DNA of 64,000 nt from Clostridia bacterium (GCA_045589295.1 JAZNOU010000012.1:165353-229352), one strand, 5' to 3'; shown: positions 7,452-37,253, numbered from the stretch's first letter. Numbers and translations: made by a program. Notes: a model not told the origin generated them from the letters alone.

Positions 7452-7523
7452 AACTTTAAGCAATCTCTCTTGTATGGGGGGATTGCTTGTAGGTTTTTGT
7501 CGCAAAATTTTTAGAAAAAACAC

Positions 7524-7552
7524 TTGATTTTGGTAAGTAGGTGTGCTATAAT
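7524..7552 (+). promoter_or_regulatory. consensus sigma-A promoter TTGATT-17-TATAAT
   Basis: An exact TATAAT at 7547-7552 sits 17 nt downstream of TTGATT, with an A-tract upstream. It lies 60 nt upstream of the PqqD-family gene. Confidence 0.6.
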
Positions 7553-7615: not shown

Positions 7616-7879
7616 ATGCGACTAAAAGATGGCTTTTTATTAAGAAATGTTGCCGGTGAATATGTTGTTGTCCCAACAGGGAACAGCATGGTTGACTTTA
7701 AGGCTATGATATCTCTTAATGAAACAGGCGCGTTTTTATGGGAGCAGCTTTTAGCAGACAAATCAGAGCAGCAACTTTTAGATGCGCTTTTGAGTGAGTA
7801 TGACGTTGATGAAAAAACCGCATCTGAAGATATTAAAGAGTTTGTAGAGTTGCTTAAAGAAAAGAACCTGTTGGTATGA
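7616..7879 (+). CDS. PqqD family protein (RiPP recognition element, lasso B1-like)
   Basis: The 87-aa product has the PqqD/RRE fold signature (MRLKDGFLLRNVAGEYVVVP...LNETGAFLWEQL...). A ribosome-binding site AAGGTG lies 5 nt upstream of the ATG, and the gene overlaps the next by ATGA. Confidence 0.8.
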   Translation: MRLKDGFLLRNVAGEYVVVPTGNSMVDFKAMISLNETGAFLWEQLLADKSEQQLLDALLSEYDVDEKTASEDIKEFVELLKEKNLLV

Positions 7880-8328
7880 ATATGAAAAAAGTCTTAAGTA
7901 CAAAAGAGATTATGCCTCTTGTGGGAGACATCTTAAAAACGGCGGAGCGAGTTAGGTTTACCGTTAAGGGAAACAGTATGTATCCGCTTTTAAGGTCGGA
8001 CCGCGACGAGGTAGAGGTTATAAAGTGCGATAGTATAGGCAAGTATGATATTGTTCTTTACAAAAGAAACAATGGTGACTATATTCTTCACAGGGTGCTC
8101 AAAGAAAATGACAACGCACTTTCAATAGCAGGCGATTTTGAACAGGAACTTGAAAGCCCTGTGTATAAAGATCAGGTTATTGCAAAAGTTGTCAATATAA
8201 TAAGAGACGGTAAAAAAGTTATCTCTTGTAACAACGGCATCTATAAAACGTATTGTGTTTTGTGGGCGGCGGTATTTAAAAACAGACGAAGGATACTTAA
8301 AATACTTAAGAAACTGAGGAAATGGTGA
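7876..8328 (+). CDS. S26/S24-type serine peptidase, Ser/His (SipW/ER-type-like), no TM anchor
   Basis: It has a GNSMYPLL nucleophile box and an IVLYK...YILHRVL box, with His where bacterial signal peptidase I (SPase I) has Lys. There is no N-terminal hydrophobic anchor, and the C-terminus is an amphipathic basic tail. Confidence 0.6.
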   Translation: MNMKKVLSTKEIMPLVGDILKTAERVRFTVKGNSMYPLLRSDRDEVEVIKCDSIGKYDIVLYKRNNGDYILHRVLKENDNALSIAGDFEQELESPVYKDQVIAKVVNIIRDGKKVISCNNGIYKTYCVLWAAVFKNRRRILKILKKLRKW

Positions 8329-9998
8329 AATTGAAAAATAAAGATATCGCTAAACAATGGTTTTTTAAGAATATCAGACAGGTTTTTGGCGGAGTTTTTG
8401 CTCTTACTTTTGTTTCTGTCCTGATTAATGTGTCAGGTGTCGGATTTGCGATTTCTTCAAAACGTGTTTTGGATGTAGCATCTAATTCAACTGAAGGGAA
8501 CTTATTAACAGAAGCTTTAGTTTTGTTTTCTTTGGTTGTGATTCAGCTTATTTTGCAAATTATCCTCTCTAAGTGCTATGTTAAAACGCAGGCACAAACG
8601 AGAATTAAAATAAAAACCGACTTGTTTGAAAGCATAGTGAAAAAAGATTTAACTGAGGTGAATTTTTATCACTCGGGTGAGTTGGTTAACAGGCTCACAA
8701 GCGACGTTAACGTTGTGTCAAACGCGGTGGTGGATATTTTACCAACTGCGATAGCACTTAGCATTGGGGTTTGTTTAAGCTTTGGGGTATTGTTCAGTTT
8801 GGACCCTGTTTATGCAGTTATTTATCTGATAGTTGCACCCCTTGCACTTTTAACTGCAAGATTTTTTAGAAAAAGGCTTAAAGTGTTACATAAAGAGTCG
8901 GTTTCAACCGACGGGATTGTTAAATCGTTTATGCAGGAATGTTTCAGAAATCTGCTCGTGGTCAAGGCTTTTGAAAAAGAAGATCACGTAACCGAAAAGT
9001 GTAATGCTTATCAACTTGCTAACTACAAGGTTTTGATAAAGAAAAACGATATCAGCATTTTAGCGAACGTAATGTTCTTTTTGTCCATTACTGCAGGCTA
9101 TTATTTAACTCTTATTTGGGGGGCATACAAGCTTTCGATAGGAATTTTAACAATCGGTGAAATTGTTGCAATGCTTGAACTTGTTTCACAAATTCAGTCC
9201 CCGCTAAAGTCATTATCATCACTTCTTCCGCAGTATTATTCGGCGGTAGCTTCATCTGAAAGAATTTTGGAGCTTGAAGATTTGCCTGATGAAAAACAAC
9301 TAAATGCAAGCAGTGAAAAAGTTGATGACTTTTCAAAGCTTGTCATTGACAATATGTCTTTTTCGTATGATGAAAGTTTAATTTTTGATAAAGCTTCCTG
9401 CGAAATTGAAAAAGGCGACATCGTCGGAATTTACGGCGAGTCGGGAATTGGAAAAAGCACACTTATAAAACTTATTTTAGGAGTGCTTAAGCCCAATAAG
9501 GGCGAGATTTACATAGTTGACCCGAGCGGTCAAAAGATTTTGGTTGATACAGAAACTAAAAACCTGTTTTCTTATGTGCCTCAAGGTAACCTGATATTAT
9601 CTGGCACAATAGCAGAAAACGTGGTTTTCGGTTCTGACAACATAGATATAAAGCTGGTTGAACGTTGCATCAAAGTGTCGCAGCTTGATGAAATGGTCAG
9701 TCAGTTGCCACTAAAACTTGATACAGGTTTGGGTGAAGGCGGCCTAGGTCTTTCTGAAGGACAGGTACAGCGATTATCTATCGCAAGGGCATTGTATCGG
9801 AATTCTGAAATACTGTTGCTTGATGAAGCAACGTCGGCTCTTGACCGAGAAACCGAAATCAGGGTGTTGGAGGAAATGAAGAGTTTGAATAAGACTTGTC
9901 TTTTCATAACTCACCGCAAAGAAGCACTTTTAAGTTGCAGCAAGCTTTTAAGTGTGAAAAACGGAAAGATTTCCATCGACAGGCAGGAAATTTTATAA
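8322..9998 (+). CDS. ABC transporter, fused permease/ATP-binding exporter
   Basis: The 558-aa product has six TM helices followed by a nucleotide-binding domain with Walker A (GESGIGKST), an LSEGQVQRLSIARAL signature and Walker B (LLLDEATSALD). Confidence 0.85.
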   Translation: MVKLKNKDIAKQWFFKNIRQVFGGVFALTFVSVLINVSGVGFAISSKRVLDVASNSTEGNLLTEALVLFSLVVIQLILQIILSKCYVKTQAQTRIKIKTDLFESIVKKDLTEVNFYHSGELVNRLTSDVNVVSNAVVDILPTAIALSIGVCLSFGVLFSLDPVYAVIYLIVAPLALLTARFFRKRLKVLHKESVSTDGIVKSFMQECFRNLLVVKAFEKEDHVTEKCNAYQLANYKVLIKKNDISILANVMFFLSITAGYYLTLIWGAYKLSIGILTIGEIVAMLELVSQIQSPLKSLSSLLPQYYSAVASSERILELEDLPDEKQLNASSEKVDDFSKLVIDNMSFSYDESLIFDKASCEIEKGDIVGIYGESGIGKSTLIKLILGVLKPNKGEIYIVDPSGQKILVDTETKNLFSYVPQGNLILSGTIAENVVFGSDNIDIKLVERCIKVSQLDEMVSQLPLKLDTGLGEGGLGLSEGQVQRLSIARALYRNSEILLLDEATSALDRETEIRVLEEMKSLNKTCLFITHRKEALLSCSKLLSVKNGKISIDRQEIL

Positions 9999-10020
9999 AG
10001 TTTGTTTGGGAGGAATAAAG

Positions 10021-10977
10021 ATGAAATGTAAGAGAATTATCAAAGTAGTAAGTGCGCTTGCATTAACTGTAGCTTTGTTAGTATCTGCTAGTGTTGTTTC
10101 ATTTGCTGCAACATATACAACACAGACAACATACATTAATGAAGATACTATTGAAGTTATTTCAAGAGCTACAGGCTTAAACGATGGCGAAATGGCTACT
10201 TATGTTGCTTACAGAAACGGCGAGTTCTCAGAAACTAATGCAGTTTACATCGACCAGGCAACAGAGCAGGACAATGCAGTTGAATTTAGATATCAGGCAG
10301 ATTCTGATGATGTAAAAGCAACAGTATTGTTCGGCGGTGAAAGCGCACCGAATACATTGGAGCCGGATAAAGTTGGTCATAAAATTACAGTATATGTTAA
10401 CGAAGTGGCTCAAGGCGACCAAGTTGCTGCTTATGCTGTAGCTGACTATGACGGCGAATATCTCGCAAGAGAATTTTCGGTAAACATTGAAAACGGAAAA
10501 GCTATTAAAAAAGTTGAATTCGCAGCTGATGGAGCTGAAAAAACAACTGTAGAAGCTTGGTATGTTAAAAATGGCGCGTTGGTTGTATTAAGCCGTGTTA
10601 TTGAATCAGATGGTTCATTGTACATTACAGCAGAGGATGCAACCATTTCTGTTAAACTTGGTGCTGTTACTGGTACTGAAAACACAATTACTGCATTTGC
10701 CAAAGCAGTTTGCACAGATGATGCAGACTACGGAATCTTAATTGCGGACTCAGAAGTTGAAATCGAAGCTGCTGGTCGTATTGACTGGAAAGATGCTGAA
10801 GACTACACAACTCCGGTTTATTTCAATGCTTTAGGCAAAGGTAACAATGGTGTATTTGCAGTAGAAGTAACTGATGAAGACTGCTTTGTTGCAGGTAAAA
10901 GCTTTAATGTAAAAGCTTATGCTGATTCTGGAGAGACAGAAGTGTATTCAATTGATACTGTAACTGTAAGATTATAA
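10021..10977 (+). CDS. secreted acidic beta-rich protein with signal peptide (possible cognate of the adjacent peptidase)
   Basis: An ATG at 10021 follows a GGGAGG ribosome-binding site. The signal peptide ends at ...SFA/ATYTT. The protein has no recognisable enzymatic motifs. Confidence 0.55.
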   Translation: MKCKRIIKVVSALALTVALLVSASVVSFAATYTTQTTYINEDTIEVISRATGLNDGEMATYVAYRNGEFSETNAVYIDQATEQDNAVEFRYQADSDDVKATVLFGGESAPNTLEPDKVGHKITVYVNEVAQGDQVAAYAVADYDGEYLAREFSVNIENGKAIKKVEFAADGAEKTTVEAWYVKNGALVVLSRVIESDGSLYITAEDATISVKLGAVTGTENTITAFAKAVCTDDADYGILIADSEVEIEAAGRIDWKDAEDYTTPVYFNALGKGNNGVFAVEVTDEDCFVAGKSFNVKAYADSGETEVYSIDTVTVRL

Positions 10978-11024
10978 GAGCGACTGTATCATTTAACGAT
11001 ACAAATTCAGGAGGAGAATTTACT

Positions 11025-11186
11025 ATGAAAAATTATCAAAAACCTGTTTTAGAGGTTGTTGAATTAGCAGTTGCTGAAAATATCGCTGCATTAGTGCCGA
11101 AAACTATCTATAAAAGATCAGTTGGCAAGAAGATGGCTCAGGACACCAGAATAATGCTTGTAGAAGATTTAAGTAATCTTAGCTAA
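11025..11186 (+). CDS. 53-aa peptide with lasso-precursor-like leader motif (candidate RiPP precursor)
   Basis: Translation is MKNYQKPVLEVVELAVAENIAALVPKTIYKRSVGKKMAQDTRIMLVEDLSNLS. An AGGAGG ribosome-binding site lies 10 nt upstream, and the ORF sits between the exporter operon and the kinase gene. The ORF track missed it because it is under 60 aa. Confidence 0.5.
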   Translation: MKNYQKPVLEVVELAVAENIAALVPKTIYKRSVGKKMAQDTRIMLVEDLSNLS

Positions 11187-11235
11187 TTTTAGCACTGCAA
11201 ATTAAATAAAAATTTGAGAGGATGTTTACTTTAAT

Positions 11236-12111
11236 ATGCAATATACTGTCGCAGGTTTTAATATTGATGTTGTCAGTGAACATCCTTCTTATCTTTTTAT
11301 GAGACTCAAAGACTATGAAAGCACTTTTTCGGGGGAAGCAGACTTTACAGTCAGGTGTAAAGAAGAAAAAAATATCGCTCTCCCCGATGATATTGTGCTT
11401 ATAGGTCAAAGAGTCGGAAGATGGATATGGTTTGAAAAAAAAGATGGTACGCTCGGTGCGTACATAAAATATGACGATGTCGAAAACATTGCGGCATTGG
11501 CATTGTGGGATAAAGCTTTTAAAAATATTGAATTATCTGTTTATGATATTGAGCCATACGGCAATTTGCCAATAGCTCAAAGAATTTTTTATTTACTGGG
11601 AGATGTTATTGCATACTCGGTATTAAACTGCGGTGCAGGAGTTTTCCATTCTTCTGCGATAAGTTATAAAGGAAACGGGATTTTATTTTCCGCACCATCG
11701 GGAACAGGAAAATCCACACATACATCTTTATGGAAAGATGTTTTTGGTGATAATGTTGTTATATTTAATGACGATACACCAATACTTAAGATAGAAAATG
11801 ACGTTTGTTTTGCCTACGGCTCACCTTGGAGCGGCAAAACTGCGATTAATGAAAATATAAAGGTTCCGCTTAAGGCGATTGTATGCCTTGACAGAGCGCA
11901 GACCAATTCAATAAAAAGACTTACGGGGATTAGTGCTTTTTACAGAATTTTCAATGAAATGAGAAAGCCTCCGGTTGAGAGTCTTATGGACAAGAGTCTT
12001 ACGGTTATGGATAGTATTTTGCAGAAAGTTCCGGTTTACGAGCTTTTTTGCAATAAAAATAAAGATGCAGTAATGACAGTTTTTGACGCTGTCGGTTTTG
12101 ACAAATTATAA
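11236..12111 (+). CDS. HPr kinase/phosphorylase-related kinase (HprK C-terminal-like P-loop)
   Basis: The segment GILFSAPSGTGKSTHTSLW...VVIFNDDTPIL matches the HprK P-loop and aspartate-pair architecture. The N-terminal 130 aa are unrelated to authentic HprK. Confidence 0.6.
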   Translation: MQYTVAGFNIDVVSEHPSYLFMRLKDYESTFSGEADFTVRCKEEKNIALPDDIVLIGQRVGRWIWFEKKDGTLGAYIKYDDVENIAALALWDKAFKNIELSVYDIEPYGNLPIAQRIFYLLGDVIAYSVLNCGAGVFHSSAISYKGNGILFSAPSGTGKSTHTSLWKDVFGDNVVIFNDDTPILKIENDVCFAYGSPWSGKTAINENIKVPLKAIVCLDRAQTNSIKRLTGISAFYRIFNEMRKPPVESLMDKSLTVMDSILQKVPVYELFCNKNKDAVMTVFDAVGFDKL

Positions 12112-12125
12112 GAGAGGTAAAAAGG

Positions 12126-13736
12126 ATGAATAAAAAAATATTTTTTGGTACACTTTTGTGTATGGTTTTATGTTTAAGCATTGCGACATGCGCATTTGCC
12201 GCAACATTTTCTGATTTATCAAAAAGCCACTGGGCGTACGATAATATTGTCGAATTAAGTTCACAGGGGGTTATAAACGGATACTCTGACGGTACATTTC
12301 GCCCCGAAGCATATGTTACGAGAGCTGAATTTGTTAAGCTTATAGGTACAATCGATACAATCAAAAATGGTGACTTTGACGACCTACCTAAAACTCACTG
12401 GGCATATGAATACGTTATGAAATCAGGGGTTGATGTTGACAGAAAGAACTTTCGCCCTGATGAAAATATCACAAGAGCAGAAGTTTTAGATATATTGTGG
12501 AACAGATATGGAACTGAAACAGATGCAAAAGTTCCCGGAATTATAGAAAATCAGCACAAAAATGTTCCGGCTGTTACCTGGGGATATTCTTACGGACTTA
12601 TGATAGGCGATGACGGAATAAATTTAAGACTTAGTGATGATTTGTCAAGAGCAGAAGCGGTTACACTTATTTTGCGCTCCAGAAAGATTGATACATCAAA
12701 GCAAAAGTTGCTTGCAGACAATGTAAACAGCAAGATTTTGGAAAATATTTTTAATGATACAATGCTTTTTGATAAACCTTACAGTGAAAATGAAACAGTT
12801 ACAGTTGGCGAAATTTCACACGCAGCTTTAAGACTTGCATATCAAACAAAGCAAATTCCATATAACAAGGATTTGTATATCGGCGATCCACAATTTGATG
12901 GTGATTATGCACTTGATATTGCTCACATGGCAAAACAAGTATTTGGTGAAGCTTCAAACAACAAAGAGTTTGCAGAAGGCAAGGCAAATCAACAGCAGGT
13001 TTTGGCAGCACTTATGTATGGTTATATGTTTAAAGCAAACGACTCGCCTGTAATCGGCAGAATGGATGATTACTACAAAGATGCAGTTGTTGCAAAAGGT
13101 CTTACAATGCAAAATATGTTACTTACATACACTAACAGACGCGGCATTTTTGCAAGCGCTGACGGACTTTTGCATAATGACAAAGCTGTAACACATAAAG
13201 AAATTGCATCAATTCTTTTGCAACTTGATAACTTTACAGGTTCACAAATAAGCTATTCAAACGGCAAAGAATCGGATGAAAAATTAAGCACAGATGCTTA
13301 TATTTACGAAAATGCAGATGATGGATTTGGAATTTTATTAAAAGGCATTCCAAACGTAGTTTACGAGACACCAATGAAAGCTCCTGCTAAAGAGTTTACA
13401 GTTTTTGCAAGAGATTTCTTTGAAATATTTACTACTCTTTCAGATGGCATTAAGGCAAAAGCCAAAAGCGAGGGCGCTGAAATTGTTTTAAGAGTTTATC
13501 CAACACTTATTGCAAATGCAGGCAATGAAGTTATTATGAGAACAAAGATATATGTAGCTTCAAATCCAAAAGGCTTAAATCTTGGTGAAATTATCGGTAA
13601 GTGCGATATGAATACAGATATTAAAGCCTTGGAAGGTAAAACGTATTTTGTTGATATTTCAACCAATCATCCATTGGATGACATGTACATCAATCCTGAA
13701 AATGTAAGCTTAAAACAGCTTATATGGAATGATTAA
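12126..13736 (+). CDS. SLH-domain cell-surface protein
   Basis: A signal peptide is followed by three S-layer-homology repeats (FSDLSKSHWAYDNIVEL...TRAEFVKLI and others) and an unassigned C-terminal domain. Confidence 0.7.
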   Translation: MNKKIFFGTLLCMVLCLSIATCAFAATFSDLSKSHWAYDNIVELSSQGVINGYSDGTFRPEAYVTRAEFVKLIGTIDTIKNGDFDDLPKTHWAYEYVMKSGVDVDRKNFRPDENITRAEVLDILWNRYGTETDAKVPGIIENQHKNVPAVTWGYSYGLMIGDDGINLRLSDDLSRAEAVTLILRSRKIDTSKQKLLADNVNSKILENIFNDTMLFDKPYSENETVTVGEISHAALRLAYQTKQIPYNKDLYIGDPQFDGDYALDIAHMAKQVFGEASNNKEFAEGKANQQQVLAALMYGYMFKANDSPVIGRMDDYYKDAVVAKGLTMQNMLLTYTNRRGIFASADGLLHNDKAVTHKEIASILLQLDNFTGSQISYSNGKESDEKLSTDAYIYENADDGFGILLKGIPNVVYETPMKAPAKEFTVFARDFFEIFTTLSDGIKAKAKSEGAEIVLRVYPTLIANAGNEVIMRTKIYVASNPKGLNLGEIIGKCDMNTDIKALEGKTYFVDISTNHPLDDMYINPENVSLKQLIWND

Positions 13737-14487: not shown

Positions 14488-17400
14488 GTGAGAGAAGATA
14501 TGAGAAAGCGTGTAAAATCGCTTATTGGCATGATTATTGCAATGACTATGATCTTGCCGACGGCTTTGCCGGTGACAACTCCTGTTTCGGCACAAAATTC
14601 CTACGGATTTAATGATTTTCCTACCGGATGGTCAGCACCTGCAATGTCACATGCAGTTGAAAACGGATTGATATACGGAAAATCCGAAGACCGTATATGT
14701 CCTACAGATAATTTAACTAGAGCGGAAATGGCTACAATCATTAACCGTGCATTCGGTGCTACGGTGGAAAAGGATATTTCGGCATTTTCAGATGTAGCTC
14801 AGTCAGCTTGGTATTACAATGAAATAAAAAAGGCATACAATATGCAAACCCTTTATGGTGATGCAGGCGGCACTATGCGTCCCGATGCCTTTATTATAAG
14901 AGAAGAAGCCATAGCGATTGTTGCAAGAGCTATGGTTTTAAGTGGTTATTCGGCTTCTAATCTTGATAAGTTTAATGATAAAGACCAAATTGCAGATTGG
15001 GCAGTAGATCCGCTGGCTTCAATGGTAGCAAACGGCTACGTTAACGGCGATGAAAAGTCTAATATGAATCCGAAGGCATTCATTACCAGAGAAGAATTTG
15101 CTCAGCTTTTACATAATATTGTTAAGCATTATTATGATGCTGAAGATGGCGTAACAACATTCAACGGGAATGTTATGATTAATGAACCGACCACTTCATT
15201 GAGTGATTTGGTTGTTAATGGCGATCTTATTTTGGGTGATGGTGTTGGAACAAGCAACATTGTTCTAAAAAATGTTAAAGTAACAGGTCGTATCCTTATC
15301 AGAGGCGCAACCCATATTTCGTTTAAAAACAGCAACTTTGGTGGCGGCGTTACAGTTAAAAATGTTAATGATGTGGTACATTTTGATCATTTTAGTGATG
15401 AAGTGCATTTTAATGATATGCAAGATCACACAGAGGTCACATTTAAGAAGAAAACTACCGGCGGTGGCGGTGGTGGAACTCCTCCGGCACCTACAACTGC
15501 TAGTTATAAAGTGGAACACTATCAGGAAGCTTTGGATGGAAGTTTTGCAGTTTTTGAAACAGAAACCCTTTCAGGCAGTATTGGTGCAAGTGTTACAGCA
15601 GTAGCTAAAACCTATACAGGTTTTAGCGAAGATACTGTAAATCCATCAAGAGTTGCAACAGGCACTGTTGTATCTGATGGTTCTTTGACTCTTAAGCTTT
15701 TTTACACAAGAAACAGTTATACAGTAACATTTGATGCTCGCGGCGGTGCTATTTCAGGCACACCGAAAACTGTTTATAAATTCGGTGAAACATTAGAACT
15801 CCCTGTACCTACAAAAGGAACAGACACATTTGGCGGGTGGTGGACAGCGCTAAATGGAACAGGAACAAAAATTGAAAATACAAGCGTATTGGGAACAGAT
15901 ATTACATCTGCTGCCATTACTGTTTATGCGCATTGGATACCTGCAGCTCCGACTCCCACAGCTACGACGTTTACAGTAAAACATTTGTTTGAAAAACTTG
16001 ACGGAACTTATGAAACTAAAGCAGAACGCGGAGATGAACTTAACGTTGCCGGTGATATAACGGTTTCAATCGTTCCTGAAAATTACAGAAATCCGATTGC
16101 GGGATTTAATTATTTTGATTATAGCTTTGACGGAACAGACAATGCAGGCATGCCAAAAGCAGATGGAAGCACTGTTCTTAATATCCGTTATAATAGAAAG
16201 AGCTACGACATCGTATATAACTATGGTGAAGCAGGCGGAAGCAACACAGTTTCATTTAGATATGGTGAAAGTGTAGATCTTTCAATTCCGACAGTTACAC
16301 CACCTGTAGGTAAGTATTTTGCAGGTTGGTATGATGCACTTGTTGGCGGCACACAGGTAACATTCCTTGAAACACCTGTTGGCGGAACAACAATTTATGC
16401 ACGTTGGGCAGAAGATGTTGGAGTTTATACTGTTGAATTCTATCAGCAGAATTTGGATGGAACTTACACCCAAGTAACTGCGGACACTTTATCAGGACTT
16501 ACTGGTGTAGTAGGAACAGATGTAAGTGTGGATAAAAATTCGACCACAATCAAAGATAAGTATATAGGTTTTGAAGTTAATGAAACAGAAAGTACACTCA
16601 CACAAAGACTTGCTAAAACAGGCACAGTACTTAAAGTTTATTATGACAGAAAGATTTATACAATCGATTACGACTTTGATGGCGGTTATGCAGATGGAAC
16701 ATATACTGATACATTTATGTATGGCCAAACCGTTGCGCTTGCCAAAGGTAAAAATAGCAATGGCAAGGTTTTAGGCGGTTGGTTTACCGATTTAGATGGT
16801 AATGGCACACAGGTAACAGATACTGCAAATATTGATGCTATCTTAGGCGCGCTCACAGGCAATACAATCACACTTTATGCTTATTGGGTAGAAGAAATAG
16901 GCGAATATTCTGTTGAATTCTATCAGGAAACTTTAGATGGTGCTGATTATACTCTTGTTGCAGCTGACACTATTGTCGGTCTTACAGGAACAGTCGGCGA
17001 GAAAGTAGCTATTGATGCAACAATAGATGAAGTTAAGAATAAATATTCAGGCTTTACAGTAAACGTTGCAAAGAGTGAACTTTCAAAAACACTTGCTAAA
17101 GAGGGCACAGTTCTTAAAGTTTACTACGACAGAAATATTTATACCTTGTATTACAATTATAGCGATGCTGATACTGTGGGAATTGGAAGTGCGACCTTTA
17201 AACATGGTCAGAATATCACATTCCCTGATGAATCAACATTCAATAAAGAATCATTTAGCTTTGCAGGCTGGTACACAACCCAGGACTTTAAAGATGATGA
17301 AGTTGTAGATACAGGCAATACAATCGAACAGATTATAGACATTGCAAATGGTGAAACAGAAACTACCATATATGCTAAATGGGCAAAATTCTTCACAGTA

Positions 17401-20400
17401 ACATTCAGAGAGGGTGCAAAAATAGGAACGTACACAGTTGATCCTGCTGTTGAAAACACAGTTCCGTATTCTGCATTCCCTTACGACAAACTTGTTGAAC
17501 GTTATAAGACAGGTTACTTTGAAGATGAATCTGTATCTTCTGTATACGCAGGTAATGAGTATAAACACACATTTGAAGGACAGTGGTACTACACAGATGA
17601 AAACGGCAACGATGTCGTATTTACAGACGAAACAATTGTAGACCGCGATCTTACAGTAAGATATAAATTCAGATATGTGAGACTGGAACTTTTTGTTGAG
17701 AAATTAGGTCATAACCTTGTACTTGAGGTGCCTTTTGAAGAAAGTACAAGAATTATCGACACAATTAAAGATGAATTGTTTGTAAATCAGGAAAAAATAC
17801 TTTTGGTTGCAGATGAAGTTGATGCAAGAAGCAAGTTTATGGCGTTGAACCTTAAGTTGGTTAACTTCCTTGACAGTAAGGGAATTGAAATAGTTGAACC
17901 TGGTATGATTTTCGCCGAAGATGGCGAAATCTTAAAGCAACATATCAGATTTAATGCATTTGCATATCTTGATGAAGCAAGTGTTAAGACTGTTGTTGTA
18001 AACGCAATCAGAACAACATTCAAAAATGATCCTTTAAGAATGCGTGGCGTTATCGATGAAATGATGACAGAACAGGATGAAGACGTTGTTAACCTTATGG
18101 ATACAATGCTTGTATCTATGCTTTCAGGTTCAGATGCTGCAAGAATCAAGGGTATTATTGCAGATGCGGTGGAAGATGCGGTTGCAAATGATACAACCGG
18201 TGAGTTCAAAAACAAAATTAAAGACATCATAACAACACAGCTTGATGCAGGTAATACAACAGTTGAAACAAGCATTAAAAAGGCAATTAAAGATTACTTT
18301 ATGAACAGCGCAAATGATGCTAAAATCAGAGAAATCGTTTCAGACCTTATTGATGATGCTTATAAAACTGATGATGAAACCGATCCGGTAAGGAATTTCG
18401 TGAAGAGTTACATAAAGACATATCTTAACGAAAACCCAACAGTTTTAGATGATATGATCAGAGAAATGGGCGAAAATTTAGATCCTAATGATCCTAACGA
18501 TGCGCACATTATTGATCTTATTCATGAAGTTTTAGACGAAAATGTAATATATCTTGAAAAACTTGTTGATGATGCTATCAAGAACCTTAAAAACACAATA
18601 GGCGAACCAATACACAGCTTTATCGTTGATGCCATCACAACAGAGCTTTCAACTAATGCTGCTGAGCTTGATATTTTGATTGATGAAATCTCAAATGCAA
18701 ACGTAACTGATATTAAGTCGGTGCTTGCAACAGTTATGGAAGATAACGATACATTTGAAATTATTGTTAAAGATGCAATTGCCGATGAAGCGGTATTTAA
18801 TAAGGTTATCAAAGCTGCTCTTGACAACGCAAGTGTATTTGATGCAATCGTAAGCGAACTTTGCAGCGGCGATACGAGCTTCTATAATATGCTTGTAGAC
18901 ATTGCACTTTCGTCAGATTCACTTAAGGGCGAGGTTAAAAATGCAGTTGTTAATAATGATGATGCACTTATAAGCGTACTTAATGAAGTGGCATCTGATG
19001 CTTCACTTAAAGCTGAAATGGTTGAAGAAATTTTAGTTGCTTCTGATGCTAAGCTTAAAGATCAGCTTACAAGCCCGCTTTCTATAACATCGGATTATTA
19101 TGCAGACGTTAAAGCTCAGGCACTCAGTCAGGCTGAAACTGAAATAATAGGCATAATCGAAACAGGTATCAATGAAGATGAACACCCAGATTACTGGCCG
19201 ATTGCTTTTGAAAAGGCTATGGAAATAGCAGAAGCAAGAGTTAGACAGGATCTTATTGCTGGCAGTGTTGATCCTAACGGTTCACTTTGGGATACAATGT
19301 ATGCAGAGGCAATGGCTCAAGCAGCAATTGATGTCAAAGCAGAGCTTAACGGAGGTATTACTGATGCTTCAGAATACTACGCAGCTGCTGTAAATGGTGC
19401 TAAAGAGCAGGCAGAAAAAGAAATTACAGACTTACTTTCAACAGGTATTACTGAGGGTAGCAAGTACTGGGATGTTGCATATAGTACTGCAAAAGGAATT
19501 CTTAGAACCGAAATTGACACATCATTCGATTCAAAGATTGTAGAAATCAAGACAGATGCTAATCTTAAAGCACAGGTGGTAGCTTGGGCACAGACAGCGA
19601 TTAATAACACTAATATAGAAAGTGCTATTAAGAACTATGCTAAAGGCTTGGCTACAAGCACAGACTCTGCGGATGTTAGCCTTAGAACATCAATTATTGA
19701 CACTGTAATCAATACAGCAGATAGCTTAGAACCAGGTAAAAAAGAGACATTGGTTAGTGATATTATCACAGAGCTTTTGAAACCTGCAAATGCAACAGTT
19801 AAAGAGACTGTTGAAAACAAGGCTATTGAAGTATTAAACAGAGCTGAAAACAATGCACTTAAAACTACGCTTATCGATAGTGTGCTTGAAGATATCTTTG
19901 CTGACAACACACTTAAAGGCGATTTGATTGCAAGACTTAAGACTAAGGTTAAGGACCCTGCACAGGAAGCATTTAAGTTAACTGTTATTAGCGAAGCTAT
20001 CAATGCAGTTGTTAATGATAGCTCAGTTAATGCAAGGGCAGTTATAATAATAAATGACCTGATTGAAACAGATACTGCATTTAAGGCAGACATTATAGAG
20101 CACATCGTCGACTATATCTTAGAAGATGCTACTGTTAGAGCTGAAGCTATGGAAAAGGTTGTCGAAATGATTGAAGATCCGGAAGATGACAGCCATAAGC
20201 AGGAAGCAATCGACTTTGCGTTTGACACCCTTAAGGGCGACACAACGAAACGTGCAGAAATTGTGGATAAGTTCTTAACAAACATCTTAGGTAATAATGA
20301 CAAGAGAGAAGATATGGCAACAGAAGTTATCGACATTATGTTCTCTAACGATACCTTAAGAAATAGGATTTTAGATCTTGGGTTCGAACAGATGTTCGCA

Positions 20401-21714
20401 GGTGAAGATACAATTGCAGAAATTGTTTCACTTGCACTCGACGAACTCATTAGTGACGATACCGTAAGACGTGATATGATTATTGCAGTAATCAGCACTG
20501 AAAGCGGAAGAAGAAAGATTTTAGACATTCTCTTTGATGAACTTGAAAGGGATCCTGAGTTCATTGACGAAATAGTTGACATCGCAATGAACGGCAAGTA
20601 TGGCGATTTGGTTGATATATTTGTATCCGACCTTATTTACAACGGAAAGATTCAGATTAATCCAGACAACAGACAAATCGCAGAAGAAATCGTTCTTCCA
20701 ATGTTAGACGACATTTCTCTTGATACTGTTTTAGGCAAATTGCCCGCAAAAGTTACAGATGTTTTACCAACATCTGTAATCGAAAAGGCGTTTAACAAGT
20801 TTAAGTCAAAAGCAAGAGAACTTTTGGTTGAAGGTATAAATGAAGCTAAAGAAGGCAACTGGAAAGACATTTCAGTTATGGTGGACAACGAGCTTGATAT
20901 AATTAATGAAGTTTTAGTTCCGCTTTATAATAAAGTATTCCCGAAAGTTGTTGACAAAGCTGAGGACTTCTACTACTACAACGAAAATGTTTACTTAAAA
21001 GCAATAGTTGACATGATTGACCCTGAGTTCTTGCTTGATAACACAAAACCGGCATCAATTGGTGGAACAGGATACAGATTAAGAACAACAGAAGAATATT
21101 ATGAAATTATCAGAAATATCTCTGTTTTAGTTGATGATGCAGCAAACTGGTATATGGAAAACATTTCTGATGACCAGATTAACGGTGCTATTGACAAAGT
21201 TGCAGGAAAAGTTAATACTTTACTTGCAAAGGTTAATGGACTTGTGGGCGGAAGAATACCAATGTCTAAGATTGACAAAGTGGTTGAATACACCAAGAAG
21301 GCTCTTGATAAGAGAGAAAGCGTTTATAATATTACAACAAATGGTGTATTTGAAAAGGTTGACAAGGTTTATAACAAGCTTATTGAAATTGTTAAAAACA
21401 AAACCGGTGTTGATATTACTAAGTCTACTACGATAGAAGTTACTTTTGACGGAAGTGAAATCGACGTAAACGGTAAGGATGTCAACATTGACAATCGTAA
21501 GATAAGCATCAGTGTTAAAGGTTACAAATTTGAACTTGATTCAGAATCAATCACAGCACTTAACAAAACTGTTAATATTGACAGATTTGTTCAAAAAGCT
21601 GCCGATTTATTCGGAACAAGAAGTGTAACATTTAAAATTATAAATGATGCTCCGTACAGCTACGGTGCTTATGTGGGCAATAACTACATAAAGTTAGCTG
21701 CTGAGTACAAATAA
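14488..21714 (+). CDS. giant (2408 aa) SLH-anchored surface protein with Listeria-Bacteroides-type repeat modules and long acidic helical C-terminal region
   Basis: A signal peptide and three SLH repeats are followed by a Gly6 linker. At least six Y-x-V-x-F...GWY/W repeat modules come next, and then an about 1,300-aa D/E-rich low-complexity region. Confidence 0.85.
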   Translation: MREDMRKRVKSLIGMIIAMTMILPTALPVTTPVSAQNSYGFNDFPTGWSAPAMSHAVENGLIYGKSEDRICPTDNLTRAEMATIINRAFGATVEKDISAFSDVAQSAWYYNEIKKAYNMQTLYGDAGGTMRPDAFIIREEAIAIVARAMVLSGYSASNLDKFNDKDQIADWAVDPLASMVANGYVNGDEKSNMNPKAFITREEFAQLLHNIVKHYYDAEDGVTTFNGNVMINEPTTSLSDLVVNGDLILGDGVGTSNIVLKNVKVTGRILIRGATHISFKNSNFGGGVTVKNVNDVVHFDHFSDEVHFNDMQDHTEVTFKKKTTGGGGGGTPPAPTTASYKVEHYQEALDGSFAVFETETLSGSIGASVTAVAKTYTGFSEDTVNPSRVATGTVVSDGSLTLKLFYTRNSYTVTFDARGGAISGTPKTVYKFGETLELPVPTKGTDTFGGWWTALNGTGTKIENTSVLGTDITSAAITVYAHWIPAAPTPTATTFTVKHLFEKLDGTYETKAERGDELNVAGDITVSIVPENYRNPIAGFNYFDYSFDGTDNAGMPKADGSTVLNIRYNRKSYDIVYNYGEAGGSNTVSFRYGESVDLSIPTVTPPVGKYFAGWYDALVGGTQVTFLETPVGGTTIYARWAEDVGVYTVEFYQQNLDGTYTQVTADTLSGLTGVVGTDVSVDKNSTTIKDKYIGFEVNETESTLTQRLAKTGTVLKVYYDRKIYTIDYDFDGGYADGTYTDTFMYGQTVALAKGKNSNGKVLGGWFTDLDGNGTQVTDTANIDAILGALTGNTITLYAYWVEEIGEYSVEFYQETLDGADYTLVAADTIVGLTGTVGEKVAIDATIDEVKNKYSGFTVNVAKSELSKTLAKEGTVLKVYYDRNIYTLYYNYSDADTVGIGSATFKHGQNITFPDESTFNKESFSFAGWYTTQDFKDDEVVDTGNTIEQIIDIANGETETTIYAKWAKFFTVTFREGAKIGTYTVDPAVENTVPYSAFPYDKLVERYKTGYFEDESVSSVYAGNEYKHTFEGQWYYTDENGNDVVFTDETIVDRDLTVRYKFRYVRLELFVEKLGHNLVLEVPFEESTRIIDTIKDELFVNQEKILLVADEVDARSKFMALNLKLVNFLDSKGIEIVEPGMIFAEDGEILKQHIRFNAFAYLDEASVKTVVVNAIRTTFKNDPLRMRGVIDEMMTEQDEDVVNLMDTMLVSMLSGSDAARIKGIIADAVEDAVANDTTGEFKNKIKDIITTQLDAGNTTVETSIKKAIKDYFMNSANDAKIREIVSDLIDDAYKTDDETDPVRNFVKSYIKTYLNENPTVLDDMIREMGENLDPNDPNDAHIIDLIHEVLDENVIYLEKLVDDAIKNLKNTIGEPIHSFIVDAITTELSTNAAELDILIDEISNANVTDIKSVLATVMEDNDTFEIIVKDAIADEAVFNKVIKAALDNASVFDAIVSELCSGDTSFYNMLVDIALSSDSLKGEVKNAVVNNDDALISVLNEVASDASLKAEMVEEILVASDAKLKDQLTSPLSITSDYYADVKAQALSQAETEIIGIIETGINEDEHPDYWPIAFEKAMEIAEARVRQDLIAGSVDPNGSLWDTMYAEAMAQAAIDVKAELNGGITDASEYYAAAVNGAKEQAEKEITDLLSTGITEGSKYWDVAYSTAKGILRTEIDTSFDSKIVEIKTDANLKAQVVAWAQTAINNTNIESAIKNYAKGLATSTDSADVSLRTSIIDTVINTADSLEPGKKETLVSDIITELLKPANATVKETVENKAIEVLNRAENNALKTTLIDSVLEDIFADNTLKGDLIARLKTKVKDPAQEAFKLTVISEAINAVVNDSSVNARAVIIINDLIETDTAFKADIIEHIVDYILEDATVRAEAMEKVVEMIEDPEDDSHKQEAIDFAFDTLKGDTTKRAEIVDKFLTNILGNNDKREDMATEVIDIMFSNDTLRNRILDLGFEQMFAGEDTIAEIVSLALDELISDDTVRRDMIIAVISTESGRRKILDILFDELERDPEFIDEIVDIAMNGKYGDLVDIFVSDLIYNGKIQINPDNRQIAEEIVLPMLDDISLDTVLGKLPAKVTDVLPTSVIEKAFNKFKSKARELLVEGINEAKEGNWKDISVMVDNELDIINEVLVPLYNKVFPKVVDKAEDFYYYNENVYLKAIVDMIDPEFLLDNTKPASIGGTGYRLRTTEEYYEIIRNISVLVDDAANWYMENISDDQINGAIDKVAGKVNTLLAKVNGLVGGRIPMSKIDKVVEYTKKALDKRESVYNITTNGVFEKVDKVYNKLIEIVKNKTGVDITKSTTIEVTFDGSEIDVNGKDVNIDNRKISISVKGYKFELDSESITALNKTVNIDRFVQKAADLFGTRSVTFKIINDAPYSYGAYVGNNYIKLAAEYK

Positions 21715-21779: not shown

Positions 21780-23345
21780 TTGAAAAAAGCATTATGTCTT
21801 GTTTTAGCTTTAATGTTATGTCTTCCATCTGTGGTTGCTTTTGCAGACATAGAAGGAACTGTACAGGGCGATATAATGCTCACTTCAACAGAGGGCGAAG
21901 CTTTGCCTGAGGATAAAGAAACTGCAACTGAAACATCAGATGCGCTTAAGTTCAGCGATATTATTGCAGATTCGGTTCTTGGTGAGGCTGTATACAAGCT
22001 TGTTGATGCAAAGGTGATATCGGGGTATCCTGATGGCACATTCAGACCTGATTCAGGGGTGACTCGTGCCGAACTTTGTAAAATGATAAATCTGGTTTAT
22101 GATTTAGATGTAAAAGCGACAAGTATGTCTTTTAAAGATGTAACAGAAGAAGACTGGTATTATGATTACGTTTTGGTTGCGGTCCAGGCGGGATATATTA
22201 AAGGCTTTACAGATAACACATTCAGAGGGGACGACCCTGTTACAAGAGAACAGGCGTGTGCTATTATAAACAGAGTAACAACAGCAAAAGGTGCAAGTCT
22301 TTTTGACTTACCTTTTACAGATAACATAACAGATGCTGTGTCAGATTGGGCATTGGAAGATGTTAAAAAAATTATTGCAAACTATGTAATGCCTTTGGAA
22401 GCAGGCGGTAAATTCCGTGCAACAGAGGATATTACAAGAGGCGAGCTTGCGCTTGCATTAGAAGGTTTTGTTGTTATAGTTCCTGAATATACAGTAACTT
22501 TTGAAACAAATGGAGGAAGTGAGATTGCTTCTGTTGTGGTTAAAGAGGGTAAAACAGTTGCAAAACCTGAAGATCCGAAAAAAGATAACTATACTTTCAA
22601 TGGTTGGTATACAGACAGTAAGCTTAAAACTGCTTATGATTTTGAAAAAACGGTTTCAGATAACATTACACTTTATGCAAAATGGCAGGCAAAAGTAACA
22701 GGCGGTGGCGGTGGAGGAGTTTATATTCCGCCTTCAGGTGGTACACCTTCATCGTACACAGTAACCTTTAATTCAAAAGGCGGCAGTGCAGTTGACAGCG
22801 TAACGGTTACATCGGGCGCAACAATTTCAGCACCTGCAGAGCCTACAAAAGAAATGAAAGTGTTTACAGGCTGGTATACAGACTCTGCTTGCACAAATCT
22901 TTTTGATTTTACAACTCCAATAACAGGCAATATTACGCTTTATGCGGGTTGGGAAGATGACCATGCGGCTATGAATGGTCAAAAAATATCCGACCTTACA
23001 ATATTTAAAGAGGCGTTGGTTGCTACTACATTTGACATTCAGCCTCATACAGACATGGCAAGCATAATTGTTTCCACGTTTGAAAGTGTGATTTCTGATG
23101 GTGAGTCCGGAATAATTCTTACAAATGACTATATTAAAACAACGTACGAAGCAAATATGCTCCAGATAAAAGATATTTGGGAGAATCAGCTGTTTGTAGA
23201 TACATTCTCAGACGAGCAACAGGATTTTAAAGATAAAATAGCGCTTGTTTTAACAGATGCACAAGCAAACGGCTATTCAATGTCACTTTCAGAAACTTAT
23301 GTATTGTTCAGAACAATAATAGGTGATTTTATAAATTGGGAATAA
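21780..23345 (+). CDS. SLH-domain surface protein with Flg_new (Listeria-Bacteroides) repeats
   Basis: It has a signal peptide, SLH repeats, two YTVTF...GWYTD repeat modules and Gly-rich linkers, making it a paralogue of the giant protein's N-terminal architecture. Confidence 0.8.
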   Translation: MKKALCLVLALMLCLPSVVAFADIEGTVQGDIMLTSTEGEALPEDKETATETSDALKFSDIIADSVLGEAVYKLVDAKVISGYPDGTFRPDSGVTRAELCKMINLVYDLDVKATSMSFKDVTEEDWYYDYVLVAVQAGYIKGFTDNTFRGDDPVTREQACAIINRVTTAKGASLFDLPFTDNITDAVSDWALEDVKKIIANYVMPLEAGGKFRATEDITRGELALALEGFVVIVPEYTVTFETNGGSEIASVVVKEGKTVAKPEDPKKDNYTFNGWYTDSKLKTAYDFEKTVSDNITLYAKWQAKVTGGGGGGVYIPPSGGTPSSYTVTFNSKGGSAVDSVTVTSGATISAPAEPTKEMKVFTGWYTDSACTNLFDFTTPITGNITLYAGWEDDHAAMNGQKISDLTIFKEALVATTFDIQPHTDMASIIVSTFESVISDGESGIILTNDYIKTTYEANMLQIKDIWENQLFVDTFSDEQQDFKDKIALVLTDAQANGYSMSLSETYVLFRTIIGDFINWE

Positions 23346-35388: not shown

Positions 35389-35516
35389 ATTTTGGCTTTT
35401 TCAGGAGATTTCAAATGATGAAATTTTTGTGAAAAAGCCGTTCTTTTTTTAAAAAAATTGACTTTATTATTTTAAAGGTGTATAATTTTATAGTTAATAA
35501 AATGTTTGGAGGCAGT

Positions 35517-37253
35517 ATGATAAAGGAACTTTCAAAATGCATAGGTAAGTATAAATTGCCGTCAATTTTATCACCTCTTTTCATAACAGGAGAGGTTATA
35601 CTGGAGGTTTTAATTCCATTTTTGATGGCAACTATTATTGACGAGGGCATAAATAAAGGAAATATGAAGGTTGTAACGGTGACAGGTGCAGTTTTGACGT
35701 TTTTGGCGCTTTTATCACTTGTTTGCGGTGCACTTTCAGGAAAATATGCAGCGATTGCATCAGCGGGTTTTGCGAAAAATTTAAGAAAGAAAATGTTTTT
35801 TAAAATTCAGGACTACTCTTTTAAAAACATTGATAAGTTTTCAACGGCAAGCTTAGTCACAAGAATGACAACTGATGTTACAAATATTCAAAACTCTTAT
35901 CAGATGATTATACGTGTTGCGGTGCGTTCGCCGATTATGATGGTAACTTCTTTGGTTATGGCGTTTTCGGTACACACTAAGCTTTCTTTAATTTTTCTTG
36001 CAATTCTTCCTGTTTTAGGTATAGGACTTTATCTTATTATGACAAATGCTCACCCTATTTTTGAAAGAGTTTTTAAAATTTATGATAAGTTAAACACAAT
36101 CGTTCAGGAGAATTTAAGAGGTATCCGTGTTGTTAAGGCTTATGTAAGAGAAGAATACGAAAAAGATAAGTTTTTTGATGCCTCAGAGGGAATGTATCAG
36201 GGCTTTTCAAATGCGGATAAGCTTTTAGCATACAATGCGCCTTTAATGCAATTTTGCGTGTATACGGCCATGCTTTTGATTTCGTGGTTTGGTGCACACT
36301 TAATTGTAAGTGACGTTTTTACAACAGGTAAGCTTGTAACACTTATTTCCTATGTAATGCAAATTCTTCACAGCCTTATGATGCTTTCAATGATATTTGT
36401 TATGATTACCATGTCAAAGGCATCAGCTAAAAGAATTGTTGAAGTTATAAAAGAGGAACCTGATATTAAAAATCCTGAAAATCCTGTTATGGAAGTAAAA
36501 TCAGGTGATATTACATTTGAAAATGTACATTTTGGATATTCTGAAAACAAAAATTGTTTGCAAAACATTAACTTAAACATTAAAAGCGGAGAAACAATTG
36601 GCATTTTAGGTGAAACGGGAAGCGGAAAATCAAGCCTTGTTCAGCTTATTTCAAGACTTTATGACGCAACCGAAGGAAGCGTTAAGGTTGGCGGAGTAGA
36701 CGTAAGAGATTATGATATTGCCGTTCTTCGCGATGCGGTTTCTGTTGTTTTGCAGAAAAACGTACTTTTTTCAGGTACAATAAAAGAGAATTTAAGATGG
36801 GGTAACAAAGAGGCAACTGATGAAGAAATTGTAAATGCCTGCCGTCTTGCTCAGGCAGATGAGTTTATAAATTCGTTTCCTGATAAATATGATACTTTTA
36901 TCGAACAGGGAGGAAGCAATGTGTCGGGCGGACAAAAACAAAGACTTTGTATTGCCCGTGCGCTTTTGAAAAATCCTAAAATCTTAATTTTAGATGACTC
37001 AACAAGTGCGGTTGACACAAGGACAGATGCAGCCTTAAGAAAAGCATTCAAGGAGGCAATCCCAAGTACAACCAAGCTTATTATTGCCCAAAGAATTTCA
37101 TCTGTTATGGATGCAGATAAAATTATTGTTATTGATGGCGGAAAAATTTCAGCATTCGGCACACACGACGTGCTAATTAAAACTAACGAAATATACAAGC
37201 AGGTGTACGAATCTCAAAGTAAAGGGGGATTAAGCGATGGGACCGATGCCTAG
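35517..37253 (+). CDS. ABC transporter permease/ATP-binding protein (heterodimeric multidrug-type exporter, subunit 1)
   Basis: It has six TM helices plus a nucleotide-binding domain with GETGSGKSS, LSGGQKQR and ILILDDSTSAVD. It overlaps its partner gene. Confidence 0.85.
   Translation: MIKELSKCIGKYKLPSILSPLFITGEVILEVLIPFLMATIIDEGINKGNMKVVTVTGAVLTFLALLSLVCGALSGKYAAIASAGFAKNLRKKMFFKIQDYSFKNIDKFSTASLVTRMTTDVTNIQNSYQMIIRVAVRSPIMMVTSLVMAFSVHTKLSLIFLAILPVLGIGLYLIMTNAHPIFERVFKIYDKLNTIVQENLRGIRVVKAYVREEYEKDKFFDASEGMYQGFSNADKLLAYNAPLMQFCVYTAMLLISWFGAHLIVSDVFTTGKLVTLISYVMQILHSLMMLSMIFVMITMSKASAKRIVEVIKEEPDIKNPENPVMEVKSGDITFENVHFGYSENKNCLQNINLNIKSGETIGILGETGSGKSSLVQLISRLYDATEGSVKVGGVDVRDYDIAVLRDAVSVVLQKNVLFSGTIKENLRWGNKEATDEEIVNACRLAQADEFINSFPDKYDTFIEQGGSNVSGGQKQRLCIARALLKNPKILILDDSTSAVDTRTDAALRKAFKEAIPSTTKLIIAQRISSVMDADKIIVIDGGKISAFGTHDVLIKTNEIYKQVYESQSKGGLSDGTDA

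Follow-up and report, generated by a model that had tools for sequence, protein, structure and literature searches.

An anchor-less S26B-type serine peptidase, probably a RiPP leader peptidase, in a kinase-RRE-exporter cassette of Clostridia

We analysed a 64,000-nt stretch of DNA from an uncultured gut Clostridia bacterium (GCA_045589295.1 JAZNOU010000012.1:165353-229352; hereafter the window, with positions counted from its first letter), and in it the gene at 7876-8328, which encodes a 150-aa peptidase of the S24/S26 fold. We propose that this protein is a dedicated leader peptidase for a peptide that is made on the ribosome and modified post-translationally (a RiPP), i.e. a cytoplasmic serine endopeptidase of the endoplasmic reticulum (ER)/archaeal S26B (SipW-like) type that has lost its membrane anchors; we put the probability of this at roughly 0.8, and hold the details of the proposed mechanism less firmly. 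The role is read from homology to LppS, which has been tested by experiment, and from a conserved cassette of genes for a kinase, a RiPP recognition element (RRE), the peptidase and an exporter, and is backed as well by natural gene fusions and by overlapping stop and start codons. On the same grounds, the leader-protease role suggested in an earlier note on this DNA is well supported.

Peptidase features and conservation

The peptidase gene and the codons of its predicted catalytic residues, placed by alignment and conservation, are:

7876-8328, + strand: LppS-like anchor-less S26B-type serine peptidase, 150 aa, the subject of this analysis
7975-7977, + strand: Ser34 codon, predicted nucleophile, equivalent to LppS Ser29
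8089-8091, + strand: His72 codon, predicted general base, equivalent to LppS His68
8152-8154, + strand: Glu93 codon, predicted third triad member, aligned to LppS Asp93

The S26B box set is present, with Ser in G-x-S-M-x-P, His rather than Lys as general base and a GD...acid box, within the motifs GNS34MYP, KYDIVLYKR, LH72RV and AG86D87. In the structural model, helix alpha1 (residues 9-22) is followed by a beta-barrel core and a C-terminal helix pair (121-149, the two helices spanning 121-134 and 137-149), and the last 20 residues carry a net charge of +9. A transmembrane segment is absent: the highest 19-residue Kyte-Doolittle mean is 0.93, against 3.04 for an anchored archaeal signal peptidase I (SPase I) control. 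Matches to curated libraries are all sub-threshold (TIGR02228, bacterial SPase I, Ni-superoxide dismutase maturation protease and Pfam Peptidase_S24); the best of them is TIGR02228, for archaeal/SipW-type SPase I (E 1.8e-5; 24.7 bits, cut-off 51.85).

Residue counts were taken over 165 family representatives from an exhaustive profile search. Ser34 and His72 are each found in 164/165, Arg73 and Gly86-Asp87 in all 165, and position 93 is Glu in 161. Across a set of 19 homologues, positions with little or no variation include G32, S34, M35, P37, K56, Y57, D58, R64, G67, H72, R73, G86, D87 and E93. Clustered at 50% identity, the profile search returned 12,416 clusters with E<=1e-3; of these, 4,382 reach E<=1e-10, and E<=1e-30 is reached by 337. 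The weakest probably include ordinary S24/S26 proteins, and gene context was checked for the 80 fetched loci only.

Most of what the earlier note had described in the protein is borne out: the 150-aa open reading frame (ORF) with its ATGA overlap to a PqqD gene, the nucleophile box and the YDIVLYK and LHRV boxes, the replacement of the general-base Lys by His as in SipW/ER-type enzymes (His72-Arg73 being nearly invariant), the lack of an N-terminal anchor, and the highly basic C-terminus, now modelled as two helices. Its Ser/His dyad stands as far as the two residues go, but the nearly invariant acid at position 93, aligned with an essential Asp of LppS, points to a Ser-His-Glu triad instead of a bare dyad.

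The overlap with the PqqD-family RRE gene places the peptidase ATG (7876-7878) across the TGA of that gene (7877-7879), and at the other end the peptidase stop (8326-8328) overlaps by 7 nt the region starting at the ATG (8322-8324) of an ATP-binding cassette (ABC) transporter gene. The peptidase is thus translationally coupled to the RRE gene upstream and to the ABC exporter gene downstream. Predicted natural fusions occur among the profile-search representatives: PqqD-peptidase in P0134 (243 aa) and HprK-like kinase-peptidase in P0162 and P0163 (371 and 375 aa), although any of these could be a gene-calling artefact; S26 peptidase-ABC fusions of ~745 aa in Bacteroidales are listed in the dataset of PMC13381572.

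Homology to LppS and the LPP cassette

LppS, from Paenibacillus alginolyticus, acts in the biosynthesis of linear polyphosphorylated peptides (LPP), a RiPP family (Popov et al., Nat Commun 2026, PMC13381572). The LPP core genes encode a precursor (LppA), an HprK-like kinase (LppK), an RRE (LppB), a signal peptidase I (SpI)-like peptidase (LppS), an MsbA-like exporter (LppD) and a nucleoside triphosphate (NTP)-transferase (LppN), and such clusters frequently sit inside capsule loci. In the core, LppK polyphosphorylates Ser3. Deletion of lppS abolishes leader removal, which takes place after T-1 of F-E-T-A-Q-S; in vitro cleavage by LppS, reported to be poorly soluble, needs the RRE LppB; S29A, H68A and D93A are inactive; and mutations of E6 and I10 lower cleavage. 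An AlphaFold3 model docks LppS helix alpha1 on the LppB-leader beta-sheet, with LppB N33 holding P-13 (the Pro kink) and D70 hydrogen-bonding Y-16. The authors state that SpI-like peptidases had previously been undescribed in RiPP pathways (all PMC13381572).

Using the LppS sequence from Supplementary Data 1 of that paper, an hhalign comparison of the window family with the LppS family (11 LppS-cluster sequences) gave a probability of 99.1% and an E-value of 1.4e-18; the 133 aligned columns take in everything from alpha1 to the C-terminal helix pair. BLASTP of the window peptidase against LppS (E 2e-8) aligns S34, H72 and E93 with S29, H68 and D93, and in the hhalign alignment E11 and L15 occupy the positions of LppS E6 and I10. 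The two proteins thus share a size of ~150 aa, the lack of an anchor, the S26B type, homology over their full length and catalytic residues in register. They differ in the third catalytic residue, Asp in 10 of the 11 LppS-cluster sequences and, conservatively, Glu in the window family, where GDxN is also replaced by GDx[Q/E]; D44, R64, Y123, Y126, W130 and R137 are invariants specific to the window family.

A nearer relative is WP_073589069 of Anaerocolumna, 39% identical to the window peptidase (E 3e-32). It lies in cluster 4 of the similarity network of PMC13381572, a paper that studied cluster 1 only; the label given there to its RRE is "RRE others", and that given to its precursor is "not determined". 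The earlier note had held that this was not a described RiPP protease class, a claim overtaken by that paper (May 2026), which covers exactly this class and includes RRE-associated clostridial homologues, this one among them. Rather than a new class, the window peptidase represents a divergent and uncharacterised branch of a kind that has only recently become known. Our literature searches for the clostridial branch (PqqD with S24, HprK with RiPP, ScmC) found only PMC13381572.

The likeness to LPP extends to the other genes of the cassette, which are:

7616-7879, + strand: discrete PqqD-family RRE, 87 aa (Pfam PF05402, E 3.4e-19)
8322-9998, + strand: MsbA/HlyB-type ABC exporter with fused membrane and ATPase domains, 558 aa
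11025-11186, + strand: putative precursor, 53 aa, with a leader of about residues 1-19 (Y4xxP7, E18-N19) and a hypervariable C-terminal core
11236-12111, + strand: HprK-like (Pfam ScmC) P-loop kinase, 291 aa, Walker A SGTGKST

An HprK-like kinase, a discrete RRE next to the peptidase, an SpI-like peptidase and an MsbA-like exporter are thus all present in the window. The kinase has the HprK/PEPCK fold and is matched by LppK in tblastn (E 4e-6). Residues N35 and D72 of the RRE are invariant in 19 orthologues and align to LppB N33 and D70, which fits a YxxP leader. The exporter has no N-terminal C39 peptidase domain: Pfam ABC_membrane begins at residue 26 and ABC_tran is present, bacteriocin-ABC models match only from about model position 146-164 onward, and the top match is TIGR02203 MsbA (E 5.8e-70, sub-threshold as an equivalog).

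Precursor peptide and proposed maturation

The 53-aa ORF between the exporter and kinase genes is preceded by an AGGAGG Shine-Dalgarno sequence. Its 24 orthologues hold the same ORF position and share the N-terminus M-K-x-Y-x-K-P-x3-V-V-E-L-x3-E-[SN], with unrelated C-termini; among 19 of them Y4, P7, V12, E13, L14 and E18 never vary. Among four orthologues from the closest loci, the first 33 codons show 3-5 synonymous and 1-4 non-synonymous differences, and the ~20 codons after codon 33 show 15-17 non-synonymous against 1-2 synonymous. This is the substitution pattern classically expected of a conserved leader joined to a hypervariable core.

Y4, P7 and E18 have exactly the spacing of Y-16, P-13 and E-2 in the LppA consensus YxxPxVLxHQxIxFETxxS, and from this spacing cleavage is predicted after N19, between N19 and I20 (nt 11081/11082). 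Relative to LppA, the window precursor has Ala at -3, Asn (Ser in some orthologues) at -1 and Ala at +3; it has neither the FET motif nor a Ser+3 phospho-acceptor. There are two candidate marks of the modification site. The motif T-I-Y-K-[KR]-[ST] directly follows the leader in the window's clade and lies close to the C-terminus in its sister clade, and a C-terminal Ser is kept in all five of the closest orthologues (window, L001-L003, L086) despite the hypervariable core. Paeninodin kinases phosphorylate the C-terminal Ser of their precursor (PMC7533575).

By homology to LPP, maturation might proceed as follows. The RRE would bind Y4-x-x-P7 of the precursor, with Asp72 hydrogen-bonding the Tyr and Asn35 fixing the Pro kink, and the HprK-like kinase would modify a core Ser or Thr, most likely by phosphorylation. 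The N-terminal helix of the peptidase would then dock on the RRE-leader beta-sheet so that the Ser34/His72/Glu93 triad could cut the leader, most likely after Glu18-Asn19, and the peptidase-less ABC exporter would secrete the core. Through its basic, hydrophobic C-terminal helices the enzyme may sit at the inner membrane face near the exporter, and it is possibly membrane-peripheral. In this scheme, dependence on the RRE, the sequence of steps, the site of cleavage, and phosphorylation and its position are all carried over from LPP and should be read as predictions.

Parts of this logic are known from other systems. In lasso peptide and paeninodin maturation, too, a discrete PqqD RRE (B1) displays a YxxP leader for a separate protease and an HprK-like kinase phosphorylates a precursor Ser (PMC7533575, PMC13381572), but the B2 protease has a transglutaminase-like Cys protease fold and the window enzyme the serine S26 fold. 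A Pfam scan of the larger window ORFs from 5970 onward detected neither Asn_synthase (lasso cyclase) nor Transglut_core (B2), and the precursor has no obvious lasso core. C39 ABC exporters (PCAT/AMS) likewise couple leader removal to ABC export, as the overlap of the window peptidase and exporter genes may also do; their papain-like Cys protease domain and the S26 Ser fold are unrelated, and the window exporter has no such N-terminal domain. SodX, the Ni-superoxide dismutase maturation protease, is a small soluble S26-type enzyme working in the cytoplasm, where it removes an N-terminal pro-sequence. It differs in having no RRE and no kinase or exporter context, and the match of the window protein to its NCBIfam model TIGR02754 is weak (E 0.03, far under the cut-off).

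Other candidate precursors turned up among the related loci. (i) In a second clade (L036, L042, L047, L050, L062, L064-L066, L068, L071, L079) they have the form M-K-x-x-Y-x-x-P-x-[IL]-E-[IV]-x-x-F-[EQN]-[TSNE]; the F-E-[T/S/N] box resembles the FET of LppA, but its distance from YxxP is three residues shorter than in LPP. (ii) YxxP-leader peptides with very different cores are found at L077 4508-4780, L057 436-627, L060 2318-2515 and L054 3790-4041, beside the same peptidase family; that of L077 is 90 aa long and rich in Cys, Ser, Gly and Tyr, and those of L057 and L060 contain Cys. Such diversity suggests several types of product for the peptidase/RRE pair.

Weighing the alternatives

Several observations weigh against a leader peptidase working as in LPP. 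Identity between the window peptidase and LppS is only 21%, and they fall in different clusters of the similarity network, the nearest listed relative being in the uncharacterised cluster 4. The closest PDB sequences to the window RRE are lasso B1 proteins and LppB (9x8z), and it scores nearer to the former (TbiB1 E 6.9e-6, LppB E 0.016); RREs of this sort are classed as "RRE others", not as LPP RREs, in PMC13381572. LppN co-occurs with 106 of the 126 cluster-1 peptidases, which are mostly from Bacilli (PMC13381572), whereas no LppN/PbaN NTP-transferase was found in the 64-kb window, by tblastn of limited sensitivity with queries reconstructed from a machine-read supplement; PbaN-like genes adjoin the cassette only in four related loci (L026 8604-9155, L042 887-1486, L039 8547-9194, L075 1916-2500), none in the window's clade. 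Because F-3, T-1 and Ser+3 are missing from the precursor, the cleavage and modification sites are extrapolations. The catalytic competence of a Glu as third residue is assumed, no role is assigned to the conserved C-terminal helices, which are hydrophobic and basic, and the activity of the clostridial branch is a prediction from sequence.

The peptidase could belong to the cassette and yet do something other than remove the leader: trim the follower, degrade leaders, serve immunity or quality control, or act as a SipA-like structural adaptor between RRE, kinase and exporter. We consider this unlikely. The near-invariance of Ser, His and Glu argues for catalysis, and the homologue LppS does remove a leader; furthermore, with no other protease in the cassette and no C39 domain on the exporter, leader removal would otherwise be left without an enzyme. 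An inactive, SipA-like homologue was likewise rejected, in view of the near-invariant triad.

SipW, Sec11 and archaeal SPase I (MEROPS S26B) are anchored in the membrane and act at its trans side, where they cut Sec signal peptides, and SipW processes TasA and TapA within the tapA-sipW-tasA operon. The window peptidase might by analogy be a dedicated SipW-like signal peptidase for co-encoded proteins, a 318-aa secreted protein and S-layer homology (SLH)-domain proteins, whose genes (below) stand in the same string. That TIGR02228 is its best curated match would agree with this, as would the presence of an SLH protein gene after the kinase gene in 16 loci. But the TIGR02228 score is far under the family cut-off, and an enzyme with no transmembrane segment could not bring its active site to the trans side. 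The conserved partners, moreover, are PqqD, the kinase and the ABC exporter rather than secreted proteins, the 318-aa protein occurring in only five related loci, and the homology to the RRE-dependent LppS is full-length. We therefore think a signal peptidase role highly improbable. The secreted 10021-10977 product, put forward in the earlier note as a substrate to assay, is for the same two reasons (an enzyme with no membrane anchor, a protein in few related loci) an unlikely one.

Hardly credible is a self-cleaving S24 regulator domain like those of LexA, UmuD or cI, which the earlier note had named as the outcome that would overturn its proposal: S24 and S26 share one fold across the whole clan, so that structural matches do not discriminate, but the window family has an invariant His-Arg where S24 has Lys, there is no DNA-binding domain nor room for one in 150 aa, at 14.2 bits the protein stays below the Pfam S24 (PF00717) cut-off of 23.3, and the context is a peptide-maturation cassette.

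Distribution and gene order

A scan of one genome per species gave 80 related loci, or 81 counting the window. Nearly all of the 80 are from uncultured gut or rumen Clostridia (Oscillospiraceae, Lachnospiraceae, Erysipelotrichaceae); cultured hosts are Thomasclavelia cocleata, Clostridium methylpentosum and [Eubacterium] cellulosolvens. Near the peptidase gene we found PqqD (within 3 kb) in 66/81 loci, the ABC exporter in 54 and the kinase in 51, counts that are lower bounds since many contigs are cut short. Usually the genes are arranged kinase, PqqD, peptidase, ABC. The window's clade has PqqD, peptidase, ABC, (X), precursor, kinase, SLH protein, and the annotated JGI contig L086 has the window arrangement gene for gene.

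We also note some peculiar loci: (i) In the metagenomic contig L087, a 602-aa Transglut_core protein (145-1953) is encoded immediately upstream of ScmC, PqqD, peptidase and ABC genes. (ii) Some genomes carry two cassette copies: L060; L038 with L073, both on contig SVJE01000003.1; L031 with L040, from one metagenome-assembled genome; and L064 with L068 (Clostridiales bacterium VE202-01). The copies in L060 are in tandem, with kinase-peptidase occurring twice.

Operon boundaries and neighbourhood

The remaining features of the operon and its surroundings are:

7457-7489, + strand: terminator-like hairpin, a 14-bp stem followed by a T-run, TAGGTTTTTG, 3' of an M23 peptidase gene
7524-7552, + strand: promoter-like TTGATT-17-TATAAT with extended -10 TG, ~60 nt upstream of the PqqD start
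10021-10977, + strand: secreted protein, 318 aa, with a classical signal peptide
12126-13736, + strand: SLH-domain cell-surface protein, 536 aa
13767-14459: Wzz-like gene, between the 536-aa SLH gene and the giant SLH ORF
14488-21714: giant ORF, 2408 aa, with SLH and Listeria-Bacteroides (Flg_new) repeats
21780-23345: ORF of 521 aa with SLH and Flg_new repeats

The terminator-like hairpin closes off the M23/LysM/G5 peptidase gene before it and is the operon's upstream boundary. The promoter-like site is the best match of the region (10/12 positions), a consensus match alone and no proof of function.

The 318-aa protein has no matches in Pfam or NCBIfam, and its PDB matches are spurious (designed repeat proteins), none above threshold. 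Among the related loci examined its homologues occur only in L001-L003, L007 and L016; it is a clade-specific accessory gene and no conserved part of the cassette.

The 536-aa protein has N-terminal SLH domains, to which its PDB matches are confined, and an unassigned C-terminal part of ~350 aa. A homologue is encoded within ~9 kb of the peptidase in 16/81 loci, and directly 3' of the kinase gene in those listed (window, L004, L006-L009, L014, L016, L024, L025, L028, L032-L034). It may be an accessory gene, or its product may be a functional partner or target of the peptide system. With the SLH/Flg_new proteins and the Wzz-like gene just downstream, the cassette lies in a cell-surface/S-layer neighbourhood and not in a classical capsule locus. 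Like LPP clusters it is found among cell-envelope/polysaccharide genes, and with the same YxxP-to-E-2 spacing in its precursor; unlike them, it is linked to SLH proteins and belongs to Clostridia, not Bacilli.

A second pair of adjacent fused-type ABC exporter genes (591 and 635 aa) lies ~26 kb downstream, at 35478-39144 of the window, beside a GH26-like protein. No link between this pair and the cassette was found.

Implications

What is new here is a sister branch, abundant in uncultured gut and rumen Clostridia, with a variant triad, another precursor family, fast-evolving cores and other accessory genes. It extends the very recent 2026 discovery and does not overturn current understanding. 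We entertain, tentatively and with some doubt, that the clostridial cassette, with its ScmC-type kinase, lasso-B1-like RRE, Ser-His-Glu peptidase and ABC exporter, is a separate gut RiPP class and no LPP orthologue. If so, its hypervariable cores, rich in Lys, Ser and Thr, would be modified at a site other than that of LPP, T-I-Y-K-[KR]-[ST] and the C-terminal Ser being candidates, and would act at the cell surface with the SLH protein, perhaps as a strain-specific phosphopeptide signal, a cell-wall peptide or a competition factor. The ~4.5-kb operon (7616-12111) is compact and would be tractable for testing the generality of LPP logic, the role of the ScmC-type kinase and action at the cell surface.

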